Part shown: positions 21,044 to 62,476 of the stretch, one piece after another | Position numbering within the stretch: the first letter of the stretch is position 1 | How the letters are laid out: each line of letters starts with the position of its first letter | Origin: Lobosporangium transversale | Lineage: Eukaryota | Reading direction: 5' to 3' | NCBI RefSeq assembly: GCF_002105155.1 | Contig: NW_019029012.1 | Span: 186,001 to 250,000, forward strand | DNA: 64,000 nucleotides | The notes under the pieces: generated by a model | Told to the model about the DNA's origin: nothing | What the model saw: the letters and a program-made list of their open reading frames with translations, nothing else | Databases searched by the model: none | Translations under genes and position numbers: made by a program

Positions 21044-22369
21044 TTATACAATGTCGTCGCAAAGGTCCATTATCCTTGCCATCGCCTGCGCATTTTTAGC
21101 ATCTACAGGACTCAACGATGCAGTATTCGCCAACAGCTTTTGCTTGCCATCATTTTGACTTGACTGTCCCACTACTATTGATGGTTTTGGTGATATTGAT
21201 GAGGCTAATGCTCTTGATACTGTAGTAGACTCTTCTGGCGCCAATTCCATTTCCACATCCTTGTCAAACTCTGGGAGCCGTAGTTTCTCCTGTTTCAGTG
21301 TCCGCAACCCTGCAAGTTGTTTCCTAAGATCAGCGCATGTTCTATGTGCCAGAAAAAAAAGAGAGAGACCAATCCTTTGAGTATTCGGTCCATATGATTA
21401 TATTGCAGTCTATAAACTGACAAAAAGAAGAAGAGTAGTTTCTTTTTGCTTTGTGCGTATTACTTTCTTAAAGCCTCAGTCTCCTTTCTTTTCCTTCGAA
21501 GTTGTTCTTCCATCATAAGCTTTAATGTCTCCCGAGCCTGATGCGGTCTATATTCGTTCAATATGTGGTGCATGTTGATAAAGATAACTCGAATCTGGTC
21601 TACTTTTGTTGCAAACTAGTTGGTTGAACAAAAAAAAAAAAAAAATGATGATAATAATAATAAAAAAAAAATCAATATATTAAAATTGATGGCACCATGC
21701 CAACACACCAACTTCAAACAATAAAACATTTTTTTTTACTTCACTGGGCGATGTGGAAAGGGTATGGACGAGTTCTAAAAAGTTGAATACAACTGAGTGA
21801 TTCAGCTTTTTGAGCTCCTTGACACGATCTACACAATTAGTCGAGTTTTTTTATTTAAATTTTTTTTTTTTTAAAAAAATAAAAATAAAAATCGTTAAAT
21901 TATTATCAGCTTGAACTAGACTAGAAAGAAGCTTAGATCTCAATGGTGTTATCTTACCAATGGGTCCCTTCGGGTATAGTTGTTCAATTCCTTGTTCCTC
22001 AAGCGTTGCTAAACTGTCCTGTACCTGTATATGTTGAGAACGTAAAAATGAATCAAGGAAAAAAGAAAAGGTAAGTATGGCTAAAAGATGGCATAAAACC
22101 TTTTTTTTTTCTTATAGGAAAAATTGATAAGTCCTGCTTACAGGCCAAGCACGTCCAAACATCCAATATACGCCTTTCTTAACTGGCGGCGGAGGCTCAA
22201 GTGCGAGGATGGGAAAAGGTAATGCTTCGAGTGACTTTGTGATCTCTTCATCTCCTGGTGCTGCAACACGAGCTTTCTCTAGTAGAGCGAGGTTTTCCTG
22301 AGTGTATCGTTGATAGTAGTAGGGTGGAGCAGGGAATGCGGCTCCTTGTTGCACATTTACTTCCTCCAT
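21044..22369 (-). CDS. MED7: Mediator complex subunit 7, multi-exon
   Basis: AAFPAPPYYYQRYT...LEPPPPVKKGVYWMFG; EQGIEQLYP; ELKKLNHSVVFNFLELV; FINMHHILNEYRPHQARETLKLMMEEQL. Confidence 0.95.
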
Positions 22370-23079: not shown

Positions 23080-23187
23080 TGCAATTCCCGTCAGAATAAA
23101 ATTTTAATCCCCCCCTCTTTCCGGAATTCTTACCCCCCCGTCACTCGCGCAATTCTTATCCCCTGTCAACATTCTGGAGCTGATTCA

Positions 23188-23222
<35 letters not shown>

Positions 23223-23772
23223 CCCACTATATCCTATGGTTCCCACTGTTCTCACACAGCTAGTACAGTATAAAAGGCCCATCAGTGTGCCGATCTGTAT
23301 TTTAGACAATAAATATTCTTAACCCCCATTAATTGCAAAAATGGTTTAGGATCACCAAATGTCTTTTTTTTTACGACTATATTGGACTCATGTGGTGCAT
23401 GTTAAGTTGCTGAAGGTTTTGAACCTAGTGATGAATACGAATCTAGGAGGGGATCATTCATCAAGGAACTGATCCATTTATCTACTGTCAAGCTTTGATG
23501 ACAAGATGAAAAGTAAGAGAGGATCAATGGTGTTGGATTAAAAAGTTAGTCAGATGTAGGTGCAACCAAAAACAGAAAATAAAATCTTCTCTCAAAAACT
23601 GCCTCAAAATGTTGACGGGGGGGTAAGGATTCCCAAAATTAAGATGGTTGACGGGGGGGTGTAACGGAATTCTGACGGGGGAGGGGTAAGAATTCCGAAA
23701 AAGGGTATGTTGACGGGGGGTTTTTGGGTATTCTCAACCGGGGGTCAAAATTTTATTCTGACGGGGGGTGCA
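23080..23772. mobile_element. Non-autonomous TIR element (MITE-like, ~690 bp) with subterminal GACGGGGG repeats
   Basis: 19-bp perfect inverted repeat CCCGTCAGAATAAAATTTT (23087-23105) / AAAATTTTATTCTGACGGG (23747-23765); several CCCCGTCA-type motifs at the left end and TGACGGGGG motifs at the right end; no ORF. Confidence 0.7.
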
Positions 23773-26021
23773 TTTTTCCTTAATTCTTTTGCTCTGCTAC
23801 CAAGTTGATCCGTATCTTCTTGATAGTGAGCCAGTACATGAAGAAAGAAAAGCAAGAATGAGAGAGAAAAGGGGGGAGGGGATATATATGGTCCCGGCTT
23901 TCGGATAATAAGTCTAAGTCGTCATATTATTCAACTTGGTCAGCTAAAAAGGATTGAGCAAAAAAGTCAAGGTCCAAAGACAGCAATGTTCAGCGCTCCG
24001 CTCTTTCCGCTTTCTTTGCGGGGGGCCGTATGAAGCCCCAGGTTGTAATGAGCCTGTTCTTCATTAGATAGTGATACTATCGAGTTTGTAAATCGAATTC
24101 TCATCTCCATATTTTCTTCTATGATCATGTGCTGTGAAAAACTACAAGACTTCATAATTATTGACAGGAGAATAGAGGACGAGAACGAACAAAGACTAGC
24201 ATCTGTGAGACAAAACTTCAGATGGAAAAACAGGTCTGCCAAGTAGACATCCTTGAATAGCGATATCTTCTTTGAAAAACTTTGAGATACTGTACTAGTA
24301 GTTACTTTGATACTTGTGATGTATACGCTCAATTCAGGGCCTGGTAGAATGAATATAAACAGTGTATCGTACTGATGTACTAAGCATACCAACATGAGTT
24401 TTCTTTTTTTTCTGAAATAGAGAAATGAAAATGTTGACATGATAGTAAAAAACTATATCAGTCTCATGTATATCACTGCAAGGAATATCTTGCCTCAAAC
24501 GAAGACGCTCACCATACAATGGACCACTTCATTTCGTAGGTCACCTGTAAGAGAAAAATACAGCTTTGGTTGTTTCCGTGTTTCACATGTTTTATTGTCG
24601 TTCACACTTCCTGAACATGGATGTCAAGTAGTTTAACGTTGTTATATGGATACTCCACAAACCATAACAGTTGCCATCTCTTCCAATACCACAAGAGTGT
24701 TAACATTCTGAACATTTCCTGTTGAACAAGAGGAGGCCCAAGTCAAAATATTCGTGTTATGGGGATGACAACTTGATGATCTTAGAGCCATAAAGGCCCC
24801 CATTTCAAAAACAATCAGCGCCGAGAATCTAGAACTATTGAAAAAGAGCATATGCCAACAATCTTCTATTAAAGAACTGCATGAAGATCGTACCCATTAT
24901 GGCCAATAAAATATCTAAAATAATAAATTTTACTTTTTCTCATGACACCACACTGGGCGGAAAGTCATTTCAGCAGAAGAGGGATTGGTGGTGTTGTAAC
25001 TCCGTCGTAGGCGAAGGTTTGCCTTTCTTGTATGTCCTCTCATCAAAGACGCCTCTCTTCGGGTATAATAATATTCATCTAAGAGATGCCTCGTTCACAA
25101 GATAAAAGAAAACAAGAACAAACATCAGGCACCAAAAGCAGAAGTCTGCAAGAAATGAGGCCTGAATCAAGAATACTTCATTATAGTAGAAACATTAAAT
25201 CTCTATTTATGATACCATTAATTATACGGTAGCGGCAGGTCTTGTTTACATCCTCATTGTTATAAAGATAATAGTAGTAAAAAGATATGAAAGAATAATT
25301 AGTGCAAGTGCTGGATTGCTCCGATGAAGCAACATGTAAATCAGGTATCAATCAAATAATAATAGCACATTCACAGATATAATTATACTCTTGCCTTTTT
25401 TTCACGAGTGTTCGAAAGCGAGAGTGTCCAAATGTTCTGGAGACGCGCCTTTGATACAGGGTTGGACATCTAATGGTGTAGTCTTTCTTGCTTTTTTGTC
25501 CTGTCCCGCACTTTATTAGCCTTTTCTGCTACTTCTCTTCTTCGTTAGTACTTTCGTTTACTTTTTCTTTGCATTTCGTTATTTGGTGTTTTCTTTTCTT
25601 ACTTTTACTTTCATTGACTTCTTGGTACTTACCTTACTTACCTGAGACTGTCCACCCTACCACCCTATACAGTCCCTTACCCTTGAAGAAAAAAAATATA
25701 AAAAAAAACTTCTTCCCGGTATTCGCTTTCTTTCCTGTACTTTCGTTTGCTTTCACTTTTTTGCTATGCTTCTGTTTGTTTCTCTTTCTACTTTCTTGTC
25801 ATGCTTTCGTTTGTATTTCTTTAACGCTTGTTATCTTTTGACTCATTCTTCTTTGCTGGTTCTCTTTCTTACTATCCTTTGCTAGTTCATTTCCTTGTTA
25901 TTCTTTGCTGGTTCACTTTCTTGCTATGCTTTGCTGGTTCACTTTCTTGCTATCCTTTGATACTTCCTTTCTTATTATTCTTTGCTGCTTCACTTTCTTG
26001 CTGCGCTTTGATGGTTCATTT

Positions 26022-26338
26022 CCTTGTTATCCTTTGGTGCTTCCCTTGTTATCCTTTGGTGCTTCCCTTGTTATCCTTTGGTGCTTCCCTTGTTATCCTT
26101 TGGTGCTTCCCTTGTTATCCTTTGGTGCTTCCCTTGTTATCCTTTGGTGCTTCCCTTGTTATCCTTTGGTGCTTCCCTTGTTATCCTTTGGTGCTTCCCT
26201 TGTTATCCTTTGGTGCTTCCCTTGTTATCCTTTGGTGCTTCCCTTGTTATCCTTTGGTGCTTCCCTTGTTATCCTTTGGTGCTTCCCTTGTTATCCTTTG
26301 GTGCTTCCCTTGTTATCCTTTGGTGCTTCCCTTGTTAT
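26022..26338 (+). repeat. 22-bp minisatellite (CCTTGTTATCCTTTGGTGCTTC) x14, inside ~2 kb of degenerate related pyrimidine-rich repeat
   Basis: 14 exact units from 26022 plus a partial unit; flanks (~25750-27450) contain diverged units such as cttgctatgctttgctggttcacttt. Confidence 0.95.
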
Positions 26339-27818
26339 TCTTTGCTAGTTCATTTCCTGTTATCTTTTGATGGTTGCTTTTTTGTTATCCTTTGGTGCTT
26401 CACTCTCTTGTTAGCCTTTGATGGTTCACTTCTTTTTTACGCTTCCATATTTTATCCTTCAATGCCTCACTTGGTTGCTACGCTTTCATTTCTTTCTTCC
26501 ATGCTTGGCTTTCCTGTTATGCTTTCATCTCTTTTTCGGTACTTCACTTTTGTTATCCTTTTCTATGTTATCCTGGGCGCATCTCTTTCGTGTTATGTTC
26601 TATTACGCTTTCCTTCATTGCTTCGCTTTCTTGTTATTTTTTCATTTGCTTTTCTCGACACTTCACCTTTTTACTATGCTATCCTTTGTTTTTCTTCCCT
26701 GCTTCACTTCCTTGTTATGCTTTCTTTCTTGCTGCTTCACTTCCTCATTTGTTTTCCTTGGCTCGTCACTTTTTAAATATACTTTCATGTACTTCTCTTC
26801 GACGCTTCACTTTCGAGTTATCCTTTCCTTTGTTTCCCTTCGATACTTCGCTTTCTTACGTTGTTTTCATTTGTTTTCTCCCTTTTCTTATTATAGCTTC
26901 CTTTTCTTATTATAACTTCCTTTGTTTCTCTTTGTGTGTGCGTGTATGTGTGTGTTTTGTTTTCCTTGTTATACTTTCGTTTGTTTCCCTTCTGTGCTTC
27001 TCTTTCTTATTATGCTTTCATTTGTGCTTCCATTTCTTTTTTGTTTTCTTTTTTTTTCTTTTCTTTTCTTCAGTGCTTCCCCTCCTTGCTATATCTTACA
27101 TTTGTTTCCCTTTTGCTTTTCTTTCTTATCATATTTTCATTTATAGGTGCCGACATTTCTTACATATATTTTTGTTTGTTCTTTTCCCTCGCTTTACTTC
27201 TTTGCTATGCTTCCGTTTGTTCTTTCTCGACTTTCCCTTCCCCTTTCTTTCTCTCTCTCTCTCTTTTTTTTTCTTATTTGCTTTCACTTACTCTTCCTAT
27301 GTGCTTCTCTTCCTTAGTTTATTTTCATTCGCTCTTTCTCGGTGTTCCTTTCTCTTTCTTATTTCTCTTTCTTTTGTTGGTTACTTGCCGCTTCTCTTCC
27401 TTACCTTACTTTCTCTTACCTTACTTTCTCTTACCTCTCGCTGCTTACCGCTCTTGGGGGTTATTTTGCCTTTGGTATAGTACGGAGACAAAAAGTATGT
27501 AGTTTAGTATAAAGTAGTGACGGCAAGAAAAGGCAACGCTCGTGTTTGAGCGAGAGTTGGTGATGACATAAAGAGGCACAGGGAGAGACAGAAGAAGTGT
27601 GTGCGTGTGTGCTTGTGTGTGAATGTATTTGACAAAGGACTGCGATCGAGACTTACTTTTCAAGAGGTGGGGGGGTGGAGAGGTGGAGAGATAAAGAGGT
27701 GGAGAAGTGAAGAGGTGAAGAGGTGAAGAGGTGAAGAGGTGAAGAGAAAGGAAGAGAAAAAAAAAGGAAAAAAAAAAGAAAGAGCGAGCTTAAAATGAGA
27801 GAAAAGCGTCATTCTCCC

Positions 27819-28800
27819 AATCTCACTCGTCGCCACCATTTCTCCTTATCTTTGTTGAAAGCGGACATAATTATCCGAATATAGGCGAAATGAAAGTGAT
27901 TGGACGCCATTTTGAAACAGCATGAAATTCAAAGAAAGGGTGGATGGAAAACTGTCGGCTTGGACAGCCCGGAAGCGATCCCGTTGCCTTTCATTGCGAC
28001 ATTTTTCGCATTTGTTGACGTAATAAGCGAAAGTGATACGACATTGAGAAGAACGAAGCAAAAAGCATCGAAGGTATTAAACTTAATGACTATGAGTAGA
28101 CACTACTCACACCACGACTTTTGACCCCAGACTTACACATCGTATGCTTTTTTTGCGATCGCATTTTCTTAAGGAACAAAAAAAAAATTGATAGAGAAAG
28201 ATGCATTAATTTTTCATGCATCTTTGGGTGTAGCCACACTTTTCATTACATCTCGCTCTTCTCTCTCTTTTATCGCTTCTAAAAGTATAATAGACAAGGA
28301 TCCAGGCTTGTCATAGACTCTAGTTCCTTCTAGTTTCTGATTGAAAGTAATACAGTGTGTTCAGGTCTGCTACAGTATCTGGTAGATGCTTTTCATGGAG
28401 CCCATCACCTTTCTGGCCCATGTCCCAAAGGTAAGCCTGCCTTATTTTTCGTTATGACCATCTTGTTGAGCGAGCAACAACAAGCAACACGTAAAAAGTA
28501 TGTAACGTGTGTGTCGAGGAAAATATTATATCCAAGCTCTGCAGGGCCTTCAGGGCCTTCAATACTTTTGATTCAACACCTTCATTACTATTGTATTTAA
28601 TTCTTCGCATTAAATTTATTTATCCCTCTTTCAATGCTTTCCCTACCTTCACGTACATTATTCCTTTTGCTTCATGTGACAATGTAATGACATCAACCGG
28701 AAGATGCTTTTGCTTTTAAAGCAACCGACTATTGCCATATTCGGATAATTATGTCCGCTTTCAACAAAGATAAGGAGAAATGGTGGCGACGAGTGAGATT
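27819..28800. repeat. Nested 64-bp perfect inverted repeat pair enclosing ~850 bp
   Basis: 27819-27882 (AATCTCACTCGTCGCC...CCGAATAT) is the exact reverse complement of 28737-28800; mirrored at 37492-37555 and 38410-38473. Confidence 0.9.
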
Positions 28801-29707
28801 ACCCAAGAAATCATGCATGGATATTCAGCGAATAAACAAGAATGCAAGAATAGCAAAATGGTGTCTGTTGGACAATGTAAACACTTTAAGGTTTGGTGGT
28901 AAATGTGGTGCAAACATTTTGATGATGACTGACATAAGGATTGGAGCTGTGTGTCACCAAGGAGTACCCACCATCCCGCCTAGTGCAGGTTGCCGGTTCA
29001 CACAGCAAGATAGTGCTTACTTTGAGTATTGCTCCATGGTGCTCCTCATTTATACTTGTGCAGGAGACAATAGAAAGGAAGTGCTTCTCAATATATATAT
29101 TGAAGCCTCTCTTCCAAAGCCAGTTGTTCATAACATAACAATAGGCACCAGAACCCCTCATTTTCGGAGCAGTATATTAATAAGTTCACCCTCCTATCAT
29201 CTAAGCAATGCCGCCTCTACTAAATTTTCAATTTTCGGAGACTGCATTTTAAAGCTTTTTTTTTTTTTTTTTTTTTTTGTGTGAATACTTTTTATTAAGA
29301 GATTGCTTGCTATCTAGCTATCTAGCTTACCTGGTTACTATCCTAAGCTACAAGAAGCCAGACTCTTAGCCACCTTGGAAAGCGCTTTTCTTTGTCACCA
29401 TCGAAAAGACTCTCCAAGATGTTGTCCGGAGCACACCACGTGGAGGTGGTCTGGCATATCGTGCTCCGTTGGTCAGGCCCCATGGCCTTGCAAACGCCCG
29501 CACACACACACATTTATTTACCCATCCCCATCTCCATTCCCATTCCCTTTCCCATTCTGGACCGAAGGGGCTCCGCCATCGCAAGGCTCGTTAAAGAACC
29601 AGCTCAGGCTCATGCCCGTTCGGACCTACCTTAGATATGCATTGGTTATTGCATCTTGGATGTGCATTGTTGCTATGTTAAAAAGTGCTTTGTATTGTGT
29701 TAGTAAG

Positions 29708-29738
<31 letters not shown>

Positions 29739-30004
29739 GGCTTTCTTATGTTTTTAATTGGCTTTTTTTTTTTCTTTTTTCTTTTTTTCTTTTTTTTCTT
29801 TTTTTCTTTTTTTCTTTTTTTCTTTTTTTTCTTTTTTCTTTTTTCTGATATGAGATCTTTTTTTTGCTTTTCTTTTTTTAGGCTTTTATTTAGTCTTTTT
29901 TTTTTGGGTTTTTTTTTTTCTTTGGTTAATTTTTTTTTAATTGTTTTTTTTCTTTGGGTTATTTTTTTTTTTCTTTGGTTTTTTTTGGTTTTTTTTTTTA
30001 TTTG

Positions 30005-30050
<46 letters not shown>

Positions 30051-31880
30051 GTTTCTTTTTTTCTTTGGTTTTTTTTTTTTTGAGGTATTTGATTCCGGAG
30101 GCGCTTGTTTTTGCCTGGATGGACTGTTCGACCTTTCTTTGGTTTAGTCCTTTTGCTGGTGGCGCTGAGCTTTCGTTACCAGTGCCTTCCAGACCACACG
30201 ATGAGAAGTGGCCTGGTCGCTATGATTTGGTGTTGTTCGTGAAGCCTTGGCCATCATACCCGAGATGGGATGGGCTGGCTATTTGGCCGCGGAGAAGGCC
30301 GTCGTTCGACTGCGGTAGACTATGAGGCCGTTTAGAGCGTGGCTGTTTAGAGCGTGGCCATCTGGAGCGTGGCCAGTTGAATACGGCTTTTCGTTGGAGT
30401 GCAGCCGTTCGAGTATGGGCGCCTGAGTGTGGCAGTCTGGCTGTGCGTTATGAAGCCCCAGTTGCTTTAGGCAGCTTCATGTCGTTGCAGTCTAATCGTG
30501 GAATGAAAAGAGAGACACAGGCAGAAAAAGAATAATCAGAACAAGGACAGTGAAGCACAGAGTGACAGTGTTGAGAACTTCAGTAAGAGTGATTGTTTAG
30601 GGAGTGTTGCTTACCTTTTGTCTTGGTTGAGGAGGCCGATGGTCGAGGAGACCGAGGAGAAAGAGAAGAGAAAAGAAGAGAAAAGAAGAAAAAAGAAGAG
30701 TCAAAATGGGTCCTTTTTATATTGGTTTCTTATTATTATTATTAACGTTCGCGCAAGAGGAGAAGGGCCGAGGAGTGATTGGTTTTCAAAAGCGCGCTGT
30801 ACTAAGTACCTTGCTTGCTGTACGCTCAAGAGCGACCAATAAAATATCAACAAAAAAAATTAAAAAATAAAAATTAATATACGTGTCTTTGATGTCATCT
30901 GTCATATTTCATATGATAAAGAAGAGACTCTCACGATTGAAAGTGGGAATAATGCTCTGTCCTCAAGACTCATAAGGAAAACCTGTCTATAAACAACCAG
31001 AGCATGAACTGTATTGCACTCGAGCTTGCTTACTCTTATTGATGAAGGAGATCATCTTCTTTATCCTCTTCTTCTATTTCCTTTCTTCACTCCTAACAAG
31101 AGATGGGATAGACTGTCGTTGGGCCTATACTTTGGCAGCTTGCCGTTTTTCCAGAGTGTGGTGGAAAATAACACATGGCATTCGTCAGAATACCTCTCCG
31201 CCTTTTTTTTTTTTTTTATTTTTTATTTTATTTTTTATTTTCATGCAATACAATGTAGAATACATTAAGATTTGAAGGTGAAACAAAGTATCAACATTTA
31301 TATATCGACCAGTAAAAGGCACACGATCGTATCGAGGAAATGACGTGTCGTATCTCTTTGGCTCTTTGAAAAGGAAAATAAGGAAAAGAAAAAAAGGAAA
31401 AATGTCTGTTTGAACAAAAACTGCCGCAGCACAGTTCCCACGACAATGCATCCTATTCTTTGTTAAGGATGAAGAGAAAGAATGGGAGAAGAGAGTCAAA
31501 TAGCAAACTGACCCTCTTACTCAGCATAACACTCAGCTGTCAAAGAAACGACGATATAAAAAGAAACAAAGACAAAGAGAAATAGAAGACAAGCAGTATT
31601 GCACGGCAAGTACGATCATAGATTTAACTATAGCAGCAATAGCGACTACCTCATCGTCAATTATTATGGTATCACACTCCGTTGCTACCTCAGGACCTGC
31701 CTCTCGTCATGCTACTGTCAAAAAGACCCAACCGAACCTAATCAGCAACAGTATTGGTGGCAATAACAGTGACGCCAAGGATGATGCCACTAAAGCCTTG
31801 ACAGTCTTTACTTCTGGATCAAGTGCCTTCCGTGCTAGAAATATTATGGAAAGCTATACCCAATGGTCCCAACGTCGTTA

Positions 31881-32140
31881 AATGCCAACACAGCTAATGG
31901 CGCGTCGTCGTCCTCGTCGTGGACGGGGTCATTCAAGTATAGCAACCGCAGCCCCAATACACTGTTGTCAAATGCCCATACAGCTAATGATTGGTCATCG
32001 TCCTCGTTGTGGATGCGATCAATCAATTATAACAATCGCAATTCCAACACACCACTATCAAATACCAATACAGCTGATGATGCGGCGTCGTCCTCGTCGT
32101 GGATGCAGTCAGTCAATTATAACAGCCGCAATTCTAACCG
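31881..32140 (+). repeat. 90-bp tandem repeat, ~2.9 diverged copies, in frame in ORF 31863-32267
   Basis: Units start at 31881, 31971 and 32061; 30-aa repeat NANTANGASSSSSWTGSFKYSNRSPNTLLS / NAHTANDWSSSSLWMRSINYNNRNSNTPLS / NTNTADDAASSSSWMQSVNYNSRNSN. Confidence 0.85.
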
Positions 32141-32928
32141 AATTCACAGAAAGTTTATACGTGGTCCAGTAACTAGATTGGAAACAATATGGGAAACAAT
32201 ATGGGAATCTGAACCATACTCTGTGCCCCAGGCAAAAGATAATGAGGCAACTGCAAAATCGGATTGAAATGGCATAACTTCTGCTCATATACATTCTTCT
32301 CACGATACAACATCAAACAGCCTTTTTACCAACAGTGATATCATCGACATCAGTTAAACCCATTGCTTCACAACCTGACCGCGTTATCTAGACTGATGCA
32401 GTAAAGGACTCCACAGCTTTGGTCAGCGCAAAGCCCAGACTTCGTGAGCAGGAAACATCCAAAAGAGAAAGTAAGCGTATGAAACATTATGCAACTAAGG
32501 ATTCTAGCTCTAAACTTAAAACAGAGACAAAAACAGTAACAGCAATAGCGGCAGTGGCAATCCTGCAAACACCATTGACATCTTCACTTTTTATGTCCGG
32601 ATTCAAAATAACAAGAGAGTTCAAAGAGTAACAATGTGACAGTATTTAGTCTTAAGCCTGAAAAGGCTTGTTATAATATATATAGTCTTAAGCCTGAAAG
32701 GTTGGTTTTAATAGTTATAATAAAACTATCTTTGTCTCTCTAAGCTATTACAAACAACAACAGCAGGGGAATCAATAGTAGGAGTGCTAGCTGCCAGAGC
32801 AATGAAATATACCAACCTTTCTCTTCGATGCTGTCCGAGGCAGGCTGATGGAGCTTCGGTTCGTATTCTAAATCTCCCATACTGTAACCTGAGTTTACTA
32901 CGGGGACGATGATAAATATATGTATACG

Positions 32929-32963
<35 letters not shown>

Positions 32964-33093
32964 CAGCTTCAATCACTTTGATCAGTTTCAGTCAAAGTCT
33001 CCATTCCATCAGATAGACTTTTCCCCTCCTTTTACTCATTCAAGCATAAGTTTCCACATACAGCACTTTCTGTCTTTCCACTCACCTCTTTTT

Positions 33094-33250
33094 CTATTGA
33101 ATGGTCTACGAAGGATGGCCTATTCACATTGTCATAGGTGCCATGGACGTATGTCCCACCCGCATCACCCTATTAGCTCGAAAGGTAGGTGCAAGTCGGA
33201 TTAGCAGGGTCTTATTTAATATTTATACGGATATGGTACCGTAGACAATG
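33094..33250 (+). repeat. Dispersed repeat or gene-fragment copy A (homologous to 57008-57218)
   Basis: ATGGTCTACGAAGGATGGCCTATTCACATTGTCATAGGTGCCATGGACGTATGTCCCAC aligns with 57015 onward; encodes MVYEGWPIHIVIGAMDVCPTRITLLARK before a GT. Confidence 0.85.
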
Positions 33251-33704
33251 CTCGTTCGCAAAGCACTTTGTTCACGCAGTGCCTCTTATCCCTTTACTCA
33301 TCTGTTTACTAACTTGCCTAACGCCCCACATATACAGAGTAGTCAAAGGAATCGCCATAACGCTGAATATGATGGATTATTTCGAAAAAGAATCAGAGCT
33401 GTTATGCCTTCCTGGGGTCTTTGGCAATGCCAACGGGCTGAACATGTCCACGACCACTCAAATCATGACCTCTGACGGCGATAACGAGACTGAAATATAT
33501 TTTGTAGATAGATCGTGAGCAGTAGAAAAAGTAAGTAAGAATTAGATGTGGGCCCACACCCATGGAGGTATTTATTCATTCCCTGGTAGAGGAGCCTGTA
33601 GCGGGTAACTACATATCTATCTATAAGATGGCATTGATTTGTTCTAGAACCTCATATCGAAAATTTATCTCGTCAAGGTGTGTGGCGCGTTATTGCCACA
33701 TAAG

Positions 33705-34300
33705 TCACATAGACTTACCAAACACTTGCAGACAAGGGATCTCCATCACAACCCGTTCATTACGTAGGTTCTCGTCAATCGTATCCTTGGCAAACCTCAT
33801 TAGGCTCCATTGGTCTTCGAGAAATAAATGTAGGCTTCGCTTGTCCTTAGACGACTTGGTCTCAGCATAAGCCGCCTCAAAAATGTACTTTCGAATCGTC
33901 ACATCTGGTTTCAGCGGATCCCCTTGCCGTACACCGTACTCCAGCGAGGATCGGTTAGCCCAATCAAGCGCAAAAGCCTAGTCATTCGCTGAGAAGAAAT
34001 AAGTCATCATTGGATCCAAATCTCCGCGCGCAATTGAGTCTTCAAGCTTGTTTGAGAAGGGATAGCTCTTTTCTGCCAACTCCTTAGAGCTATGTTCAAT
34101 CCACAAAGATTGAGGAAAATAAAATGTTTGCACTTGATAGTTTCCCATCATAACCAAGTACCTGTTGTTTGCTGTGAGTGATATGGGTGAGCGTAAGTAC
34201 AGTGGTAGGAAGAGGATAAAGACATTTTCCTTCTCATTATCTTTGAAATCGCAGCCTTGGACTCGGATGCGTCCTGTGTGGGTCATCTCTCGGCTGAGCT
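33705..34300 (-). pseudogene. Degenerate non-LTR (LINE) retrotransposon ORF2 remnant
   Basis: Minus strand near 33910-33955 reads SSLEYGVRQGDPL (LINE RT QG motif). Upstream VQTFYFPQSL...DSIARGDL resembles the APE endonuclease YxPP and GDxN motifs. Stops and internal deletions present. Confidence 0.6.
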
Positions 34301-34326
34301 GTGTACAGAGAGTCACTGAGTTAAGC

Positions 34327-34420
34327 AAAATAAAATAAAATAAAATAAAATAAAATAAAATAAAATAAAATAAAATAAAATAAAATAAAATAAAACAAAA
34401 TAAATAAAATAAAATAAAAT
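34327..34420 (+). repeat. (TAAAA)n microsatellite
   Basis: Direct reading: aaaataaaataaaataaaa... Confidence 0.95.
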
Positions 34421-34781
34421 ACAATAAAAAAGAAAGCGGCCGTAGCGGGAATTGAAAATGGGTAATCTGCGCGCTTGTGATATCATCCGTCAATTTTCAT
34501 ATGCTCGCAAGGTGGAGAAAGAGAAAACTCTTACGGGTGGAGGGATAACCATCCTCAAAGATATGCAGGGTCATATATACATACAACAACAAGAGCACGA
34601 GCCACAATGCTCTCTTTGTATGGTGTGCAGCAAAGAGAGAAAGGGTGTGACGCGACTAAAGTAAAAGGACAGGATTCAGAGCACAAGCTTATCAACACTC
34701 GCATACTCCCATTTTTCGCCAGCATTAAGCTCGAGTACCTTTTTTTCTTTAGCAATGGGGTTCATCAGGCACTGTCAGTAG

Positions 34782-36241
34782 AGTTTGCTATTTGACTCTC
34801 TTCTCCCATTCTTTCTCTTCATCCTTAACAAAGAATAGGATGCATTGTCGTGGGAACTGTGCTGCGGCAGTTTTTGTTCAAACAGACATTTTTCCTTTTT
34901 TTCTTTTCCTTATTTTCCTTTTCAAAGAGCCAAAGAGATACGACACGTCATTTCCTCGATACGATCGTGTGCCTTTTACTGGTCGATATATAAATGTTGA
35001 TACTTTGTTTCACCTTCAAATCTTAATGTATTCTACATTGTATTGCATGAAAATAAAAAATAAAATAAAAAATAAAAAAAAAAAAAAAGGCGGAGAGGTA
35101 TTCTGACGAATGCCATGTGTTATTTTCCACCACACTCTGGAAAAACGGCAAGCTGCCAAAGTATAGGCCCAACGACAGTCTATCCCATCTCTTGTTAGGA
35201 GTGAAGAAAGGAAATAGAAGAAGAGGATAAAGAAGATGATCTCCTTCATCAATAAGAGTAAGCAAGCTCGAGTGCAATACAGTTCATGCTCTGGTTGTTT
35301 ATAGACAGGTTTTCCTTATGAGTCTTGAGGACAGAGCATTATTCCCACTTTCAATCGTGAGAGTCTCTTCTTTATCATATGAAATATGACAGATGACATC
35401 AAAGACACGTATATTAATTTTTATTTTTTAATTTTTTTTGTTGATATTTTATTGGTCGCTCTTGAGCGTACAGCAAGCAAGGTACTTAGTACAGCGCGCT
35501 TTTGAAAACCAATCACTCCTCGGCCCTTCTCCTCTTGCGCGAACGTTAATAATAATAATAAGAAACCAATATAAAAAGGACCCATTTTGACTCTTCTTTT
35601 TTCTTCTTTTCTCTTCTTTTCTCTTCTCTTTCTCCTCGGTCTCCTCGACCATCGGCCTCCTCAACCAAGACAAAAGGTAAGCAACACTCCCTAAACAATC
35701 ACTCTTACTGAAGTTCTCAACACTGTCACTCTGTGCTTCACTGTCCTTGTTCTGATTATTCTTTTTCTGCCTGTGTCTCTCTTTTCATTCCACGATTAGA
35801 CTGCAACGACATGAAGCTGCCTAAAGCAACTGGGGCTTCATAACGCACAGCCAGACTGCCACACTCAGGCGCCCATACTCGAACGGCTGCACTCCAACGA
35901 AAAGCCGTATTCAACTGGCCACGCTCCAGATGGCCACGCTCTAAACAGCCACGCTCTAAACGGCCTCATAGTCTACCGCAGTCGAACGACGGCCTTCTCC
36001 GCGGCCAAATAGCCAGCCCATCCCATCTCGGGTATGATGGCCAAGGCTTCACGAACAACACCAAATCATAGCGACCAGGCCACTTCTCATCGTGTGGTCT
36101 GGAAGGCACTGGTAACGAAAGCTCAGCGCCACCAGCAAAAGGACTAAACCAAAGAAAGGTCGAACAGTCCATCCAGGCAAAAACAAGCGCCTCCGGAATC
36201 AAATACCTCAAAAAAAAAAAAACCAAAGAAAAAAAGAAACC

Positions 36242-36272
<31 letters not shown>

Positions 36273-39200
36273 AAAGAAAAAAAAATAAACCCAAATAAAC
36301 CAAAAAAAACCAAAAAAAACCAAAGAAAAAAAAAATAACCCAAAGAAAAAAAACAATTAAAAAAAAATTAACCAAAGAAAAAAAAAACCCAAAAAAAAAA
36401 GACTAAATAAAAGCCTAAAAAAAGAAAAGCAAAAAAAAGATCTCATATCAGAAAAAAGAAAAAAGAAAAAAAGAAAAAAAGAAAAAAAGAAAAAAAGAAA
36501 AAAAGAAAAAAAGAAAAAAGAAAAAAAAAAAGCCAATTAAAAACATAAGAAAGCCAAAAAAAAAAAAAAAAAAAAAAAAAAAACCCTTACTAACACAATA
36601 CAAAGCACTTTTTAACATAGCAACAATGCACATCCAAGATGCAATAACCAATGCATATCTAAGGTAGGTCCGAACGGGCATGAGCCTGAGCTGGTTCTTT
36701 AACGAGCCTTGCGATGGCGGAGCCCCTTCGGTCCAGAATGGGAAAGGGAATGGGAATGGAGATGGGGATGGGTAAATAAATGTGTGTGTGTGCGGGCGTT
36801 TGCAAGGCCATGGGGCCTGACCAACGGAGCACGATATGCCAGACCACCTCCACGTGGTGTGCTCCGGACAACATCTTGGAGAGTCTTTTCGATGGTGACA
36901 AAGAAAAGCGCTTTCCAAGGTGGCTAAGAGTCTGGCTTCTTGTAGCTTAGGATAGTAACCAGGTAAGCTAGATAGCTAGATAGCAAGCAATCTCTTAATA
37001 AAAAGTATTCACACAAAAAAAAAAAAAAAAAAAAAAGCTTTAAAATGCAGTCTCCGAAAATTGAAAATTTAGTAGAGGCGGCATTGCTTAGATGATAGGA
37101 GGGTGAACTTATTAATATACTGCTCCGAAAATGAGGGGTTCTGGTGCCTATTGTTATGTTATGAACAACTGGCTTTGGAAGAGAGGCTTCAATATATATA
37201 TTGAGAAGCACTTCCTTTCTATTGTCTCCTGCACAAGTATAAATGAGGAGCACCATGGAGCAATACTCAAAGTAAGCACTATCTTGCTGTGTGAACCGGC
37301 AACCTGCACTAGGCGGGATGGTGGGTACTCCTTGGTGACACACAGCTCCAATCCTTATGTCAGTCATCATCAAAATGTTTGCACCACATTTACCACCAAA
37401 CCTTAAAGTGTTTACATTGTCCAACAGACACCATTTTGCTATTCTTGCATTCTTGTTTATTCGCTGAATATCCATGCATGATTTCTTGGGTAATCTCACT
37501 CGTCGCCACCATTTCTCCTTATCTTTGTTGAAAGCGGACATAATTATCCGAATATGGCAATAGTCGGTTGCTTTAAAAGCAAAAGCATCTTCCGGTTGAT
37601 GTCATTACATTGTCACATGAAGCAAAAGGAATAATGTACGTGAAGGTAGGGAAAGCATTGAAAGAGGGATAAATAAATTTAATGCGAAGAATTAAATACA
37701 ATAGTAATGAAGGTGTTGAATCAAAAGTATTGAAGGCCCTGAAGGCCCTGCAGAGCTTGGATATAATATTTTCCTCGACACACACGTTACATACTTTTTA
37801 CGTGTTGCTTGTTGTTGCTCGCTCAACAAGATGGTCATAACGAAAAATAAGGCAGGCTTACCTTTGGGACATGGGCCAGAAAGGTGATGGGCTCCATGAA
37901 AAGCATCTACCAGATACTGTAGCAGACCTGAACACACTGTATTACTTTCAATCAGAAACTAGAAGGAACTAGAGTCTATGACAAGCCTGGATCCTTGTCT
38001 ATTATACTTTTAGAAGCGATAAAAGAGAGAGAAGAGCGAGATGTAATGAAAAGTGTGGCTACACCCAAAGATGCATGAAAAATTAATGCATCTTTCTCTA
38101 TCAATTTTTTTTTTGTTCCTTAAGAAAATGCGATCGCAAAAAAAGCATACGATGTGTAAGTCTGGGGTCAAAAGTCGTGGTGTGAGTAGTGTCTACTCAT
38201 AGTCATTAAGTTTAATACCTTCGATGCTTTTTGCTTCGTTCTTCTCAATGTCGTATCACTTTCGCTTATTACGTCAACAAATGCGAAAAATGTCGCAATG
38301 AAAGGCAACGGGATCGCTTCCGGGCTGTCCAAGCCGACAGTTTTCCATCCACCCTTTCTTTGAATTTCATGCTGTTTCAAAATGGCGTCCAATCACTTTC
38401 ATTTCGCCTATATTCGGATAATTATGTCCGCTTTCAACAAAGATAAGGAGAAATGGTGGCGACGAGTGAGATTGGGAGAATGACGCTTTTCTCTCATTTT
38501 AAGCTCGCTCTTTCTTTTTTTTTTCCTTTTTTTTTCTCTTCCTTTCTCTTCACCTCTTCACCTCTTCACCTCTTCACCTCTTCACTTCTCCACCTCTTTA
38601 TCTCTCCACCTCTCCACCCCCCCACCTCTTGAAAAGTAAGTCTCGATCGCAGTCCTTTGTCAAATACATTCACACACAAGCACACACGCACACACTTCTT
38701 CTGTCTCTCCCTGTGCCTCTTTATGTCATCACCAACTCTCGCTCAAACACGAGCGTTGCCTTTTCTTGCCGTCACTACTTTATACTAAACTACATACTTT
38801 TTGTCTCCGTACTATACCAAAGGCAAAATAACCCCCAAGAGCGGTAAGCAGCGAGAGGTAAGAGAAAGTAAGGTAAGAGAAAGTAAGGTAAGGAAGAGAA
38901 GCGGCAAGTAACCAACAAAAGAAAGAGAAATAAGAAAGAGAAAGGAACACCGAGAAAGAGCGAATGAAAATAAACTAAGGAAGAGAAGCACATAGGAAGA
39001 GTAAGTGAAAGCAAATAAGAAAAAAAAAGAGAGAGAGAGAGAAAGAAAGGGGAAGGGAAAGTCGAGAAAGAACAAACGGAAGCATAGCAAAGAAGTAAAG
39101 CGAGGGAAAAGAACAAACAAAAATATATGTAAGAAATGTCGGCACCTATAAATGAAAATATGATAAGAAAGAAAAGCAAAAGGGAAACAAATGTAAGATA

Positions 39201-42200
39201 TAGCAAGGAGGGGAAGCACTGAAGAAAAGAAAAGAAAAAAAAAGAAAACAAAAAAGAAATGGAAGCACAAATGAAAGCATAATAAGAAAGAGAAGCACAG
39301 AAGGGAAACAAACGAAAGTATAACAAGGAAAACAAAACACACACATACACGCACACACAAAGAGAAACAAAGGAAGTTATAATAAGAAAAGGAAGCTATA
39401 ATAAGAAAAGGGAGAAAACAAATGAAAACAACGTAAGAAAGCGAAGTATCGAAGGGAAACAAAGGAAAGGATAACTCGAAAGTGAAGCGTCGAAGAGAAG
39501 TACATGAAAGTATATTTAAAAAGTGACGAGCCAAGGAAAACAAATGAGGAAGTGAAGCAGCAAGAAAGAAAGCATAACAAGGAAGTGAAGCAGGGAAGAA
39601 AAACAAAGGATAGCATAGTAAAAAGGTGAAGTGTCGAGAAAAGCAAATGAAAAAATAACAAGAAAGCGAAGCAATGAAGGAAAGCGTAATAGAACATAAC
39701 ACGAAAGAGATGCGCCCAGGATAACATAGAAAAGGATAACAAAAGTGAAGTACCGAAAAAGAGATGAAAGCATAACAGGAAAGCCAAGCATGGAAGAAAG
39801 AAATGAAAGCGTAGCAACCAAGTGAGGCATTGAAGGATAAAATATGGAAGCGTAAAAAAGAAGTGAACCATCAAAGGCTAACAAGAGAGTGAAGCACCAA
39901 AGGATAACAAAAAAGCAACCATCAAAAGATAACAGGAAATGAACTAGCAAAGAATAACAAGGGAAGCACCAAAGGATAACAAGGGAAGCACCAAAGGATA
40001 ACAAGGGAAGCACCAAAGGATAACAAGGGAAGCACCAAAGGATAACAAGGGAAGCACCAAAGGATAACAAGGGAAGCACCAAAGGATAACAAGGGAAGCA
40101 CCAAAGGATAACAAGGGAAGCACCAAAGGATAACAAGGGAAGCACCAAAGGATAACAAGGGAAGCACCAAAGGATAACAAGGGAAGCACCAAAGGATAAC
40201 AAGGGAAGCACCAAAGGATAACAAGGGAAGCACCAAAGGATAACAAGGAAATGAACCATCAAAGCGCAGCAAGAAAGTGAAGCAGCAAAGAATAATAAGA
40301 AAGGAAGTATCAAAGGATAGCAAGAAAGTGAACCAGCAAAGCATAGCAAGAAAGTGAACCAGCAAAGAATAACAAGGAAATGAACTAGCAAAGGATAGTA
40401 AGAAAGAGAACCAGCAAAGAAGAATGAGTCAAAAGATAACAAGCGTTAAAGAAATACAAACGAAAGCATGACAAGAAAGTAGAAAGAGAAACAAACAGAA
40501 GCATAGCAAAAAAGTGAAAGCAAACGAAAGTACAGGAAAGAAAGCGAATACCGGGAAGAAGTTTTTTTTTATATTTTTTTTCTTCAAGGGTAAGGGACTG
40601 TATAGGGTGGTAGGGTGGACAGTCTCAGGTAAGTAAGGTAAGTACCAAGAAGTCAATGAAAGTAAAAGTAAGAAAAGAAAACACCAAATAACGAAATGCA
40701 AAGAAAAAGTAAACGAAAGTACTAACGAAGAAGAGAAGTAGCAGAAAAGGCTAATAAAGTGCGGGACAGGACAAAAAAGCAAGAAAGACTACACCATTAG
40801 ATGTCCAACCCTGTATCAAAGGCGCGTCTCCAGAACATTTGGACACTCTCGCTTTCGAACACTCGTGAAAAAAAGGCAAGAGTATAATTATATCTGTGAA
40901 TGTGCTATTATTATTTGATTGATACCTGATTTACATGTTGCTTCATCGGAGCAATCCAGCACTTGCACTAATTATTCTTTCATATCTTTTTACTACTATT
41001 ATCTTTATAACAATGAGGATGTAAACAAGACCTGCCGCTACCGTATAATTAATGGTATCATAAATAGAGATTTAATGTTTCTACTATAATGAAGTATTCT
41101 TGATTCAGGCCTCATTTCTTGCAGACTTCTGCTTTTGGTGCCTGATGTTTGTTCTTGTTTTCTTTTATCTTGTGAACGAGGCATCTCTTAGATGAATATT
41201 ATTATACCCGAAGAGAGGCGTCTTTGATGAGAGGACATACAAGAAAGGCAAACCTTCGCCTACGACGGAGTTACAACACCACCAATCCCTCTTCTGCTGA
41301 AATGACTTTCCGCCCAGTGTGGTGTCATGAGAAAAAGTAAAATTTATTATTTTAGATATTTTATTGGCCATAATGGGTACGATCTTCATGCAGTTCTTTA
41401 ATAGAAGATTGTTGGCATATGCTCTTTTTCAATAGTTCTAGATTCTCGGCGCTGATTGTTTTTGAAATGGGGGCCTTTATGGCTCTAAGATCATCAAGTT
41501 GTCATCCCCATAACACGAATATTTTGACTTGGGCCTCCTCTTGTTCAACAGGAAATGTTCAGAATGTTAACACTCTTGTGGTATTGGAAGAGATGGCAAC
41601 TGTTATGGTTTGTGGAGTATCCATATAACAACGTTAAACTACTTGACATCCATGTTCAGGAAGTGTGAACGACAATAAAACATGTGAAACACGGAAACAA
41701 CCAAAGCTGTATTTTTCTCTTACAGGTGACCTACGAAATGAAGTGGTCCATTGTATGGTGAGCGTCTTCGTTTGAGGCAAGATATTCCTTGCAGTGATAT
41801 ACATGAGACTGATATAGTTTTTTACTATCATGTCAACATTTTCATTTCTCTATTTCAGAAAAAAAAGAAAACTCATGTTGGTATGCTTAGTACATCAGTA
41901 CGATACACTGTTTATATTCATTCTACCAGGCCCTGAATTGAGCGTATACATCACAAGTATCAAAGTAACTACTAGTACAGTATCTCAAAGTTTTTCAAAG
42001 AAGATATCGCTATTCAAGGATGTCTACTTGGCAGACCTGTTTTTCCATCTGAAGTTTTGTCTCACAGATGCTAGTCTTTGTTCGTTCTCGTCCTCTATTC
42101 TCCTGTCAATAATTATGAAGTCTTGTAGTTTTTCACAGCACATGATCATAGAAGAAAATATGGAGATGAGAATTCGATTTACAAACTCGATAGTATCACT

Positions 42201-42463
42201 ATCTAATGAAGAACAGGCTCATTACAACCTGGGGCTTCATACGGCCCCCCGCAAAGAAAGCGGAAAGAGCGGAGCGCTGAACATTGCTGTCTTTGGACCT
42301 TGACTTTTTTGCTCAATCCTTTTTAGCTGACCAAGTTGAATAATATGACGACTTAGACTTATTATCCGAAAGCCGGGACCATATATATCCCCTCCCCCCT
42401 TTTCTCTCTCATTCTTGCTTTTCTTTCTTCATGTACTGGCTCACTATCAAGAAGATACGGATC
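34782..42463. repeat. Right arm of ~7.7-kb near-perfect inverted duplication
   Basis: Reverse complement of 23807-31509; differs mainly in homopolymer/low-complexity tracts and in having 13 rather than 14 copies of the 22-bp unit. Confidence 0.97.
39954..40248 (-). repeat. 22-bp minisatellite x13 (mirror of 26022-26338)
   Basis: GAAGCACCAAAGGATAACAAGG repeated from 39963 to 40248 (286 bp = 13 units). Confidence 0.95.
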
Positions 42464-42643
42464 CACTTACCAGCATCCGAAACTCTAAAAGGATATCTGT
42501 AATAAGGTACAGGCTTGTACTTAGTCATCGTTTTCTATACCATGCTCTGATGGAGTGCTACAATTCTTCTGATATTGGAAATGGCAAGAGGAGAAGAGGA
42601 GCGTCTTTATATTATTATTATTATTTCTATTTTATTATTAGAC

Positions 42644-42990
42644 TCCTTTCGTGCTTGAGAGGGTGTGATCAGCAACCAGGCTGGTGAGCTGGTTTGTTCA
42701 TCACTACGGGTATGGGCCTTCAGCCTCTGCCAGGAGTTTCTCTGCAACTGGTCATGCTCATTGTCGCGTACTTGATGCCTACAAGTATGGAGCAGAGTAA
42801 GGTGCCTATTTTTTATTTTTTTTCTATTCCTTTCGTGTTTGAGAGGGTGTGATCAGCAATCAAAAAGATGATGGGTCGGTTGCTCATCAATACGGGTACG
42901 GACTTTCAGCCTCTTCCAGAAGTGACTCTGCAACTGGCCATGCTCATTGTCGTGAACTTGACGCCTCTCAATTATGGAGCAGAGCGAGGA
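42644..42990 (+). repeat. Diverged tandem direct duplication, ~185-bp period, two copies
   Basis: TCCTTTCGTG(C/T)TTGAGAGGGTGTGATCAGCAA...TCAGCCTCT.CCAG...CTCTGCAACTGG.CATGCTCATTGTCG...TATGGAGCAGAG at ~42644-42800 and ~42828-42990. Confidence 0.85.
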
Positions 42991-45578: not shown

Positions 45579-46763
45579 ATGTCTGGAGTTGATACACCAC
45601 GCATTATCCTCGGGTAAGATTACAATTGGCCTGTTTCTACGATTTGCTTTGAACACACTTTAATGGAGATGTCATAGTAAATGGAGCAAAGCAAGGCCCT
45701 CACTCAAGCTTTCTACACCCTTTCTCCTTAGCACCATGACCTTCGGATTAGAGGGATCTGATGCGGCTGCTACGACCGTTCGTGTGCGCGGTAGTGAGAA
45801 CATCAAAGCCTATTTGGATGAGTTCCATGCTCACGGTCATGTAGAGCTTGATACCGCCAGGGTTTATTGTGGAGGTGACACTGAGATTGTAAGAAACTTT
45901 TGAGCTGATAGCCCTTTGTAACATTTTTCATGAACATAAGAAAGAAGAGAAAAAAGACCACACATAAATGGTTTTTTTTTTTTTTTTTTTAGGCTTTGGG
46001 TCAGTTGCCGACAGAACCTTTCAAAATTGCGACCAAAGTTTGGCCCACAGTCCCCAAAGCGCATGCTTTAGAGCATCTGAGGAGGACGCTCCAAGAGTCA
46101 TTGACGGCGTTGAAGCTCAAGAAAATTGACATTTTTTATTTGCACGCGCCTGACTATACGACTTCATTTGAGGAAACTGTCAAAGCTGTGGATGAGCTCT
46201 ACCGCGAAGGGCTTTTTGAACGGGTAATAGATAATCGTTTTTTTTGCTCGTGATGGATGGCAATGGGCCAAAGACCAGCCATAAATTATAACTTATTTTT
46301 CTCTTTTACAATTTAATTGTAACGGCTCTCATTAGTTTGGATTGTCCAACTTTGCAGCGTGGCAAGTGGCATTGATCCATCAGCTTTGTAAGCAACATGG
46401 ATATGTTCTCCCAGTCGTTTATCAAGGAATGGTATGATTCCCAGGTATTTTCTTCGATATTCAAGATACTTTCGGATGTTCTCACACTTATGTGTCTTTT
46501 TTTTTTTTTTTTTTCCTCAGTACAATGCGATCACAAGAGATGTTGTCAGAGAACTCTTCCCTTGTCTCAAGGCTCTCAACATCGCGTTCTACGCTTATAA
46601 CCCAATCGTAAGAATGAATCATTGTCTAAGCATATCCTCCTTTTACGCTTCATGACATCTGATACATCTCTTTTTTTTCTCTTAGGCTGGAGGCCTTCTT
46701 TCGGGTAGATATAATTTTGATAGCAATGATGCTCAGGATGGTGGACGCTTTGCTACGAAGGTA

Positions 46764-46798
<35 letters not shown>

Positions 46799-46947
46799 GA
46801 AAAAAAACTAATTGTGACTCGATGCTCAATGATTAAAATGGCGATTAACCATGTCGGTTTTACTTATACATGTAGACCGAAGTCGGAAAAATGTAAGGCA
46901 TTGTGTCATGATTAGGAATAAAGCAAAATGGCTATGTATTTTTTCTA

Positions 46948-46987
<40 letters not shown>

Positions 46988-47319
46988 GCTATCGTGAACG
47001 TTACTGGAATAACTTGTTCTTTGAGGCTGTCAAGAAAGTGGAAAAGGCAGCCAAGGATAACAATCTGACCTTGATTGAGACTGCTTTACGTTGGATGTCG
47101 CATCACTCCGATCTGGGTCCACAGGATGGTATTATTATTGGTGCATCTTCAATGCAGCACCTGAAGGACAATTTGCGGGATTTAGAGAAAGGTCCCTTGC
47201 CACAACATGTTGTTGAGGCATTGGATGAAGCCTGGGAGCATGTCAGAGTTGCATGTCCCTCATACTTCAAGACTGCAGCAGCTGCTCAAACCGTATCTAA
47301 TGTTTTTAGGAAGTTATAG
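45579..47319 (+). CDS. Aldo-keto reductase, aflatoxin aldehyde reductase (AKR7)-like, multi-exon
   Basis: PRIILG|TMTFG...ELDTARVYCGGDTE; KIATKVWP; IDIFYLHAPD; FGLSNFAAWQV; VYQGM|YNAITR; FYAYNPI|AGGLL; ALRWMSHHS...IIIGASS...LEKGPLP. Confidence 0.93.
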
Positions 47320-49525: not shown

Positions 49526-51630
<2,105 letters not shown>

Positions 51631-52147
51631 GTTACTGCGCCGCGTCGGTTGAATGAGAATGGAAATGTGAAAATGAAAAAAGAAGCGTGAGAATGTTACA
51701 CTTCGCACTCGGAAAAAAAAAAAAAAAAAAAAAGAAAAACAACATTTATGGAACAGCCACGTGAAAAATACAGTCCTTCCCCGGTAGTCGATTTCCCAAT
51801 AAAAGTAACTTGCGTGCCAGCTGAGGTGCAAAGTCGGTTTATCATTATTTACGGGTTGCTATCACTTCACCACTGTCTACGCCTAATAGCCTTCTCATTA
51901 CTGAGGCGCAAGATGTACCATCGATGGACAGCAATTATCGTATTCGATGCTTTCTCGCAATTATAAATATAACTTCATGTCCTATATGTTGAAGGATTCG
52001 AGATGAGAGGAACTTCACTGTTCAATTCAAGCAAATAAGAATCCATGTATGATATCTCACAATCATGATATATTTTGGCAGTGGAATAGGAATCAAATAA
52101 ATAAATAGTTTTTATACAGTAAAGATTATCTTTTTCTTTTTCTTTTT

Positions 52148-55879: not shown

Positions 55880-56019
55880 GCTGGGCAAGTCGAATAACAT
55901 GACGACTTAAGCTTATTATCCGAGAGCCAGGACCATATATCTCCTCTTTTCTCTCTTTCTTCTTTTTCTTTCTTCACGTCCTGGCTCAAGAAGATGCAGC
56001 TCCACTTGGTAGCGGAGCA
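55880..56019 (+). repeat. Diverged third copy of the outer end of the large inverted-repeat arms
   Basis: gctgggcaagtcgaataacatgacgacttaagcttattatccgagagccaggaccatatat...cttcacgtcctggctcaagaagatgcagctccacttggtagcggagc aligns with 42326-42468 and with the reverse complement of 23790-23944. Confidence 0.85.
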
Positions 56020-62474: not shown

Positions 62475-62476
62475 TA

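Follow-up and report, generated by a model that had tools for sequence, protein, structure and literature searches.

The window analysed here, a 64,000-nucleotide stretch of DNA from Lobosporangium transversale (assembly GCF_002105155.1, contig NW_019029012.1, positions 186,001 to 250,000 of the forward strand), carries a large palindrome between MED7 and an aldo-keto reductase gene, with two near-identical inverted arms around a spacer (Table 1). We write this locus as X-A-S-A'-Y, where X and Y are the left and right flanks, A and A' the arms and S the spacer; primes denote reverse orientation (S', U'), and U stands for the 462 other letters that precede paralogues of the spacer. Self-BLAST of the window gives a single long inverted match, 23802-31509 against 42468-34782 (7,715 columns, 99.5% identity, E=0), which is beyond chance. 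Global alignment finds three substitutions between the arms, at 23806, 30010 and 30020, the last two within a T-rich tract, together with indels that comprise one 22-bp minisatellite unit, six of 1-bp T, and two short ones (2 and 5 bp) in T tracts. The longest exact arm-to-arm runs are 3,212, 2,215 and 1,488 bp, and, with one T-rich tract and the outer end set aside, about 7.2 kb of the arms are free of substitutions. This is in agreement with the initial annotation, made from the sequence alone, which had described the arms as reverse complements save for low-complexity tracts and one minisatellite unit; the ends it placed at 23807 and 42463 are correct, and the match runs 5 bp beyond them if one mismatch is allowed. 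Each arm also contains a perfect 64-bp inverted repeat (27819-27882 and 28737-28800, with mirrors at 37492-37555 and 38410-38473), which makes four identical copies in all; no target duplication is evident.

Table 1. Features of the palindrome and its surroundings (positions in the window)
Feature	Position	Strand	Details
Whole palindrome, X-A-S-A'-Y	23802..42468		18,667 bp; self-BLAST and global alignment
Left arm A	23802..31509	+	7,708 bp; outer joint native to repeat family, inner joint new
Right arm A'	34782..42468	-	7,687 bp; inner joint native to repeat family, outer joint new
Spacer S	31510..34781		3,272 bp; 2-4 near-identical copies elsewhere by contig depth; putative fold-back loop
Repeat-family block across right-inner joint	34393..35873		about 12-43 units summed depth; shortened mirror at about 30418-31509
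Gene-like fragment with three 90-bp repeats	31510..32264	+	cut at left-inner joint; paralogues carry 462 bp of other sequence (U) before it
Pyrimidine-rich degenerate satellite with 22-bp minisatellite	25750..27440	+	14.7 copies in left arm, 13.7 in right
Nested perfect 64-bp inverted repeat	27819..28800		854 bp apart; mirror 37492-38473
T-rich tract with most arm-to-arm differences	29710..30081	+	repeat scan and alignment
GT..AG interval, likely intron	41337..41435	+	99 bp; skipped by X5 contig; mirror at about 24835-24933
Diverged (78%) copy of arm outer end	55880..56019	-	continues across left-outer joint to 23790
MITE-like (miniature inverted-repeat transposable element) sequence	23080..23772		0.7 kb; sub-repeated G/C-run inverted ends; abuts left arm
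MED7, left flanking gene	21047..22369	-	start 22369; Pfam and homologue records
Aldo-keto reductase, right flanking gene	45579..47319	+	start 45579
MetAP2, synteny marker	49541..51858 (ends approximate)	-	Pfam and homologue records
Acyl-CoA dehydrogenase (ACAD), synteny marker	52157..53792	-	Pfam and homologue records

Evidence on copies and joints comes from the assembled contigs of four of eight listed public runs, three of DNA (X1, X3 and X4) and one presumed to be of RNA (X5), in which stretches without coverage are given no weight; X1 is possibly the source sample of the assembly, and the other three come from other studies. The single-copy unit was taken from contigs of Y that match with 0 substitutions over 42439-44829, at a depth of 127-136 in X1 and 9.5-9.8 in X3; single-copy contigs themselves range from 0.82 to 1.14 units, and contig depth indicates copy number roughly and is not a true count. 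Individual arm contigs lie at 2.6-7.1 units and individual spacer contigs at 2.1-3.9 units, with three parts of the spacer in many more copies. Because these depths exceed single copy, arms and spacer alike are fragments of dispersed repeats and segmental copies. Summed depth, counted at 85% likeness, rises to about 12-43 units in a block made up of the arm's inner 1.1 kb and the neighbouring 0.4 kb of spacer; the ends of this block are approximate (159-bp bins). Other copies of the family diverge from the window by up to 3.5% (10/287 letters), whereas the two arms share about 7.2 kb free of substitutions. The spacer had been described as unique, which holds within the window; beyond it contig depth points to two to four near-identical copies, with three parts far more numerous. 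The 90-bp repeat reported in the spacer was found at 31880-32138 (2.9 copies). Remnants of long interspersed nuclear elements (LINEs), also proposed for the spacer, were not confirmed: their sole basis is one motif, GVRQGDPL, which we take as characteristic of reverse transcriptases from LINEs; it lies in the minus-strand frame 33708-33977, and this frame, with its stop read as X, matched no Pfam family at E<=5 and no relevant PDB entry, so that profiles give no support. The spacer also holds one member of an 83% identical pair of 117-bp repeats (33093-33209 and 57007-57123; about 41-46 units summed depth), and contigs there return from 33250 to 33093 through a tandem-like joint.

Three of the four joints of the palindrome have contig support of varying strength, and the way in which joints continue in other copies of the family can be observed directly. 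The right-inner joint S-A' is native to the repeat family, because the family runs through it in other copies: in each of the three DNA runs, contigs that link opposite strands connect the arm end at 31506 with spacer position 34713 or 34743, and one X5 contig, possibly from a paralogue, spans the joint with 177 arm and 284 spacer letters (depth 4.76, 18 gap letters). The left-outer joint X-A is also native, since family sequence continues past the arm end in three lines of evidence. The diverged copy at 55880-56019 crosses the joint, family sequence extending left to about 23787; loose ends of contigs at the arm's outer end go on with 15 letters that are identical to those of the left flank; and a two-contig consensus from X3 (agreement 0.78) could be rebuilt letter for letter from the left flank of the window and the flank of a third copy, by which the joint is probably present in X3. 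At the right-outer joint A'-Y the 15-letter continuation of the family is missing, and this joint is for that reason new; contigs with 0 substitutions begin at 42439 and enter Y at single-copy depth in both X1 and X3. The left-inner joint A-S is likewise new, with U as the native neighbour of the spacer's left end, because a 961-bp contig found in all three DNA runs covers 31508-32007 with U in front.

The flanks X and Y probably belong together, as relatives keep MED7 close to MetAP2 and ACAD. In Mortierella sp. GBA39 the protein records of MED7 and ACAD are separated by seven accession numbers, and both name a contig of 46,981 bp; one gene model of Mortierella alpina fuses MetAP2 to MED7 in the order and strand of the window. 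A metagenome scan for MED7 neighbourhoods was uninformative, as its 8 loci were distant (38-48% identity) and none of the 8 had a match to MetAP2, ACAD or DnaJ (the window encodes a DnaJ-domain protein at 5835-6800).

The pattern of native and new joints is better explained by fold-back or template switching than by long-term conversion. It is most likely, with a probability that we put at roughly 0.55, that the arms stem from one recent fold-back (two-step template-switch) repair event and have no function of their own. Because X-A and A-S' are both native, an ancestral order X-A-S'-U'...Y can be rebuilt. At the S/U boundary (31510), breakage or fork stalling would have been followed by some 3.3 kb of resection, the free end would have folded back at short microhomology at the A/S' boundary, and synthesis would have copied A backwards over 7.7 kb. 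A second switch would then have returned to the same chromosome at Y (42469), with loss of U' and anything after it; such a switch is needed given the interstitial site and the kept synteny of the flanks. The immediate product would be X-A-S'-A'-Y, with the spacer in the orientation opposite to that of the window, and the window's orientation may reflect a later crossover between the arms or the assembler's free choice across identical arms. As U' is not at the start of Y, it was probably lost or already absent. Plain inversion, with duplication of the breakpoint and nothing lost, was considered and rejected: the U of the 961-bp contig is not on Y among the matches listed, and 42488-43223 is single-copy. 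Since the arms are substitution-free over about 7.2 kb whereas other copies differ by up to 3.5%, either the event would be recent or conversion would be active. One option in the initial annotation had been a recent inverted duplication or foldback element kept uniform by arm-to-arm conversion, with an invertible spacer; read as a recent inverted duplication whose spacer can flip, this option gives the best fit, and long-term conversion as the source of arm uniformity is less favoured by the joints.

The locus has the look of a real and recent inverted duplication in a repeat island, a new case of a type of rearrangement that is already known. The human fold-back inverted duplications described in the parts of Hermetz et al. 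2014 (PMC3907307) used here likewise consist of two inverted copies that enclose some 3 kb of spacer, itself not duplicated (median 3,428 bp, against 3,272 bp in the window), with one native and one new inner joint and short microhomology of 2-8 bp at the new one. In the window, microhomology at the new joint is at least 2 bp, as the paralogue aligns from 31508, and a 6-bp match lies 5 nt from the native joint. The human duplications are large, are found next to terminal deletions or translocations and involve a dicentric intermediate, in contrast to the Lobosporangium palindrome, which is interstitial with 7.7-kb arms, keeps the synteny of its flanks, lies wholly within repeat DNA and has its spacer flipped. 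If its origin is by fold-back, the palindrome would be a clean natural example with four readable joints, in an early-diverging multinucleate fungus, of a repair route known mostly from human patients.

Several observations count against a fold-back origin. The left-inner joint 31509/31510 appears in no contig, joint or loose end among the matches listed for X1, X3, X4 and X5, and it is relevant here that contigs drop minority paths. At the right-outer joint the A'-Y contigs hold 25-30 arm letters, below the 31 letters that our rule for joint-spanning contigs requires, and equal to the overlap expected at a graph branch. X1, if it is the source sample of the assembly, provides no independent support. 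The microhomology is short and was spotted post hoc, the paralogue being known only from 31508 onward. The differences in T tracts are one-sided, the left arm gaining T or losing non-T letters, which resembles weaker read support there. An ACC direct repeat flanks the whole unit, which fits transposition and is unexplained by fold-back. Finally, the depth of the 961-bp contig that joins U to S (2.09 and 2.38 units observed) separates the relevant models poorly: a depth of 2.32, which the observed values fit, is predicted if two U-S copies are joined by a real window copy that lacks U, 2.0 if the window's copy is absent and 1.82 if the centre is collapsed (other models give 1.32 and 2.82), and single-copy contigs spread over 0.82-1.14 units.

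The absence of A-S from the matches listed for all four runs and the lean of the left-arm differences towards T are also arguments for an assembly error at the left-inner joint, in which a chimeric or minority read would have joined arm to spacer among repeat copies, perhaps those of a longer palindrome with a collapsed centre. Such an error would be in line with the U-S contig, which crosses 31508 unbroken in all three DNA runs at a depth near two copies. We nevertheless consider it unlikely. Over 499 bp, the window's spacer and U-S are separated by 11 substitutions, most of them transitions, for which consensus errors are an unlikely source. At the 10 sites listed for the 961-bp contig, the three DNA runs agree with one another on letters that are not those of the window; two copies of equal depth should yield mosaics that differ from run to run, as they do in the aldo-keto reductase gene, and none are seen at these sites. 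Uniform non-window letters fit a two-copy majority that hides a one-copy variant, and the window's copy of the spacer therefore looks distinct and real. In both X1 and X3, contigs agree with Y for about 2.4 kb with 0 substitutions, the three other joints are supported, and X and Y are syntenic in relatives. An artefact had been expected to leave the arms at half of single-copy depth, and this was not found: arm contigs lie at 2.6-7.1 units, not at one, although these values are inflated by other copies of the family. Reading the depths as those of heterozygous haplotypes, with the unit equal to one haplotype, offers no simple fit for a 961-bp contig at about 2 units. Joint 31509/31510 of the public assembly is accordingly flagged as one that needs a check.

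The ACC direct repeat (23799-23801 and 42469-42471, within TGCT..AGCA) would have a ready explanation if the palindrome were a giant foldback-type DNA transposon with 7.7-kb terminal inverted repeats, internal tandem sub-repeats and a 3-bp target duplication; repeats of length 2 and 4-10 at the same positions mismatch. In foldback-type transposons such as FB of Drosophila and Galileo, long inverted arms that contain tandem sub-repeats enclose a middle part that varies, a layout that the palindrome shares, including the tandem sub-repeats of its arms. At least three outer ends of the family were found, and a weak PIF/Harbinger-type Pfam hint lies in the arm (PF04827, E=0.014, below the cut-off). 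We give this explanation little credence. Family sequence passes the supposed left end in two other copies, because of which the left ACC would belong to the element and not to a target. The other copies carry U, not an arm, before the spacer, and a shared two-arm layout was not found. Pfam, homologue and Atlas searches found no transposase in the arms: a 161-aa arm frame had no homologue among 421 candidates and no Atlas match at >=0.9, and a 187-aa arm frame had no match among 1.84 billion representatives. Compared with FB and Galileo, the Lobosporangium arms are several times longer and end inside older repeat sequence, and other copies are without the two-arm layout.

A fold-back origin could coexist with a function of the locus as a centromere. 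In this functional proposal the palindrome would be an inverted-repeat regional centromere, with CENP-A on the spacer, arms kept alike by conversion and an inner repeat shared between chromosomes. The gap between MED7 and the aldo-keto reductase gene, which the initial annotation had called gene-free over about 23 kb, spans 23.2 kb, and none of 133 frames in it reaches the Pfam cut-off in a scan of stop-to-stop frames of at least 45 aa over 22600-34900 and 42400-45600 (low-complexity frames and the right arm excluded); the window has no Rfam or tRNA match. The layout resembles that of Komagataella phaffii, whose centromeres are described in the part of PMC5010909 used here as near-identical 2-kb arms around about 1 kb, with ordinary base composition. 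G+C is ordinary in the window as well (38.6% in the arm, 41.4% in the spacer and 39% in the left flank), CpG depletion and AT content show nothing unusual in arms or spacer, and base composition does not discriminate. The block of about 12-43 units at the inner joint could be the shared repeat, and a second palindrome could account for the two further copies of U-S. Loss of CENP-A is reported for Mucorales and Umbelopsidales in the part of 10.1101/706580 considered, which does not state it for Mortierellaceae.

Other evidence makes the centromeric proposal improbable, if slightly less so than the transposon. The core is not unique, as spacer contigs lie at 2.1-3.9 units and parts of the spacer far higher, so that a non-repetitive core is lacking. 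In relatives the site is an apparently ordinary gene neighbourhood, judging by protein records, and a conserved position between orthologous flanking genes does not seem to exist; yeast centromere positions are largely conserved according to PMC12711049, as far as that source was used, though in another clade than Lobosporangium. The joints cut repeat-family sequence and a gene-like fragment, as in a one-off accident, and a second repeat-rich stretch at 54-64 kb indicates that repeat islands are common here. An X5 contig skips the GT..AG interval 41337-41435 in the arm, and in the same run two GT..AG intervals of the reductase gene are skipped as well; this suggests spliced RNA from the arm at this locus or a sister copy, the contigs giving no level or strand. 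K. phaffii centromeres, by contrast, are untranscribed (PMC5010909, same part); the X5 contig could be that of a paralogue. Removal of the 99-bp interval opens no long reading frame.

Inverted-repeat centromeres of K. phaffii, Schizosaccharomyces pombe and Candida tropicalis (PMC5010909, PMC7292649) share with the locus near-identical inverted arms, a central region, a gene-free gap, ordinary G+C and, in K. phaffii (PMC5010909), a spacer that arm recombination can invert. They differ in that their CenH3 core is non-repetitive and single on each chromosome and that transcription is lacking in K. phaffii, whereas the Lobosporangium locus has a multi-copy core, arms three to four times as long as those of K. 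phaffii, arm-family sequence that looks spliced in one run and a site that looks compact in relatives. The mosaic centromeres of Mucor circinelloides, which belongs to the same phylum, are gene-free, repeat-bearing regions of 15-75 kb (against 23 kb here) with Grem-LINE1 elements and without CENP-A (10.1101/706580). No inverted-repeat layout is mentioned in the part of that source used, and the Lobosporangium locus has neither an intact LINE nor an AT-rich core. A bolder version, to which we assign only a slim chance, is that this would be the first inverted-repeat centromere outside ascomycete yeasts, each chromosome bearing a palindrome built from the shared inner-joint repeat family and renewed by fold-back. 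If true, these would be the first mapped centromeres of Mortierellaceae, with a direct view of the birth of arms, and a centromeric locus would be a concrete target for CENP-A chromatin immunoprecipitation and Hi-C. A literature search over titles and the openings of abstracts, with most subscription journals outside its scope, found no Mortierellaceae centromere map and nothing on this locus.

Further features were seen around the palindrome. On its left, the MITE-like element ends about 15 bp from the start of the repeat-family sequence. On its right, a tandem 186-bp duplication (about 80% identical, 42624-43016) lies just beyond the arm, followed by open frames of 116-223 aa at 43518-44559 (minus strand) and 44679-45188 (plus strand), the 223-aa frame at 43518-44186; none matches Pfam at the cut-off. 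The aldo-keto reductase gene has, over 45458-46700, a second allele or paralogue that is about 97-98% identical; contigs of X1 and X3 are differing mosaics of the two, and those of X5 equal the window. A Pogo/CENP-B-type gene at 9879-11948 (CENP-B_N, HTH_Tnp_Tc5 and DDE_1 matches) is perhaps a domesticated transposase. The second repeat island contains an XPG/PIN-like frame with a neighbouring frame at 58442-60379 and an RNase H-like fragment at 63429-63788, all by weak matches, and a Tc1/mariner element occupies 61135-62478, with 33-bp inverted ends and an open transposase frame of 337 aa.

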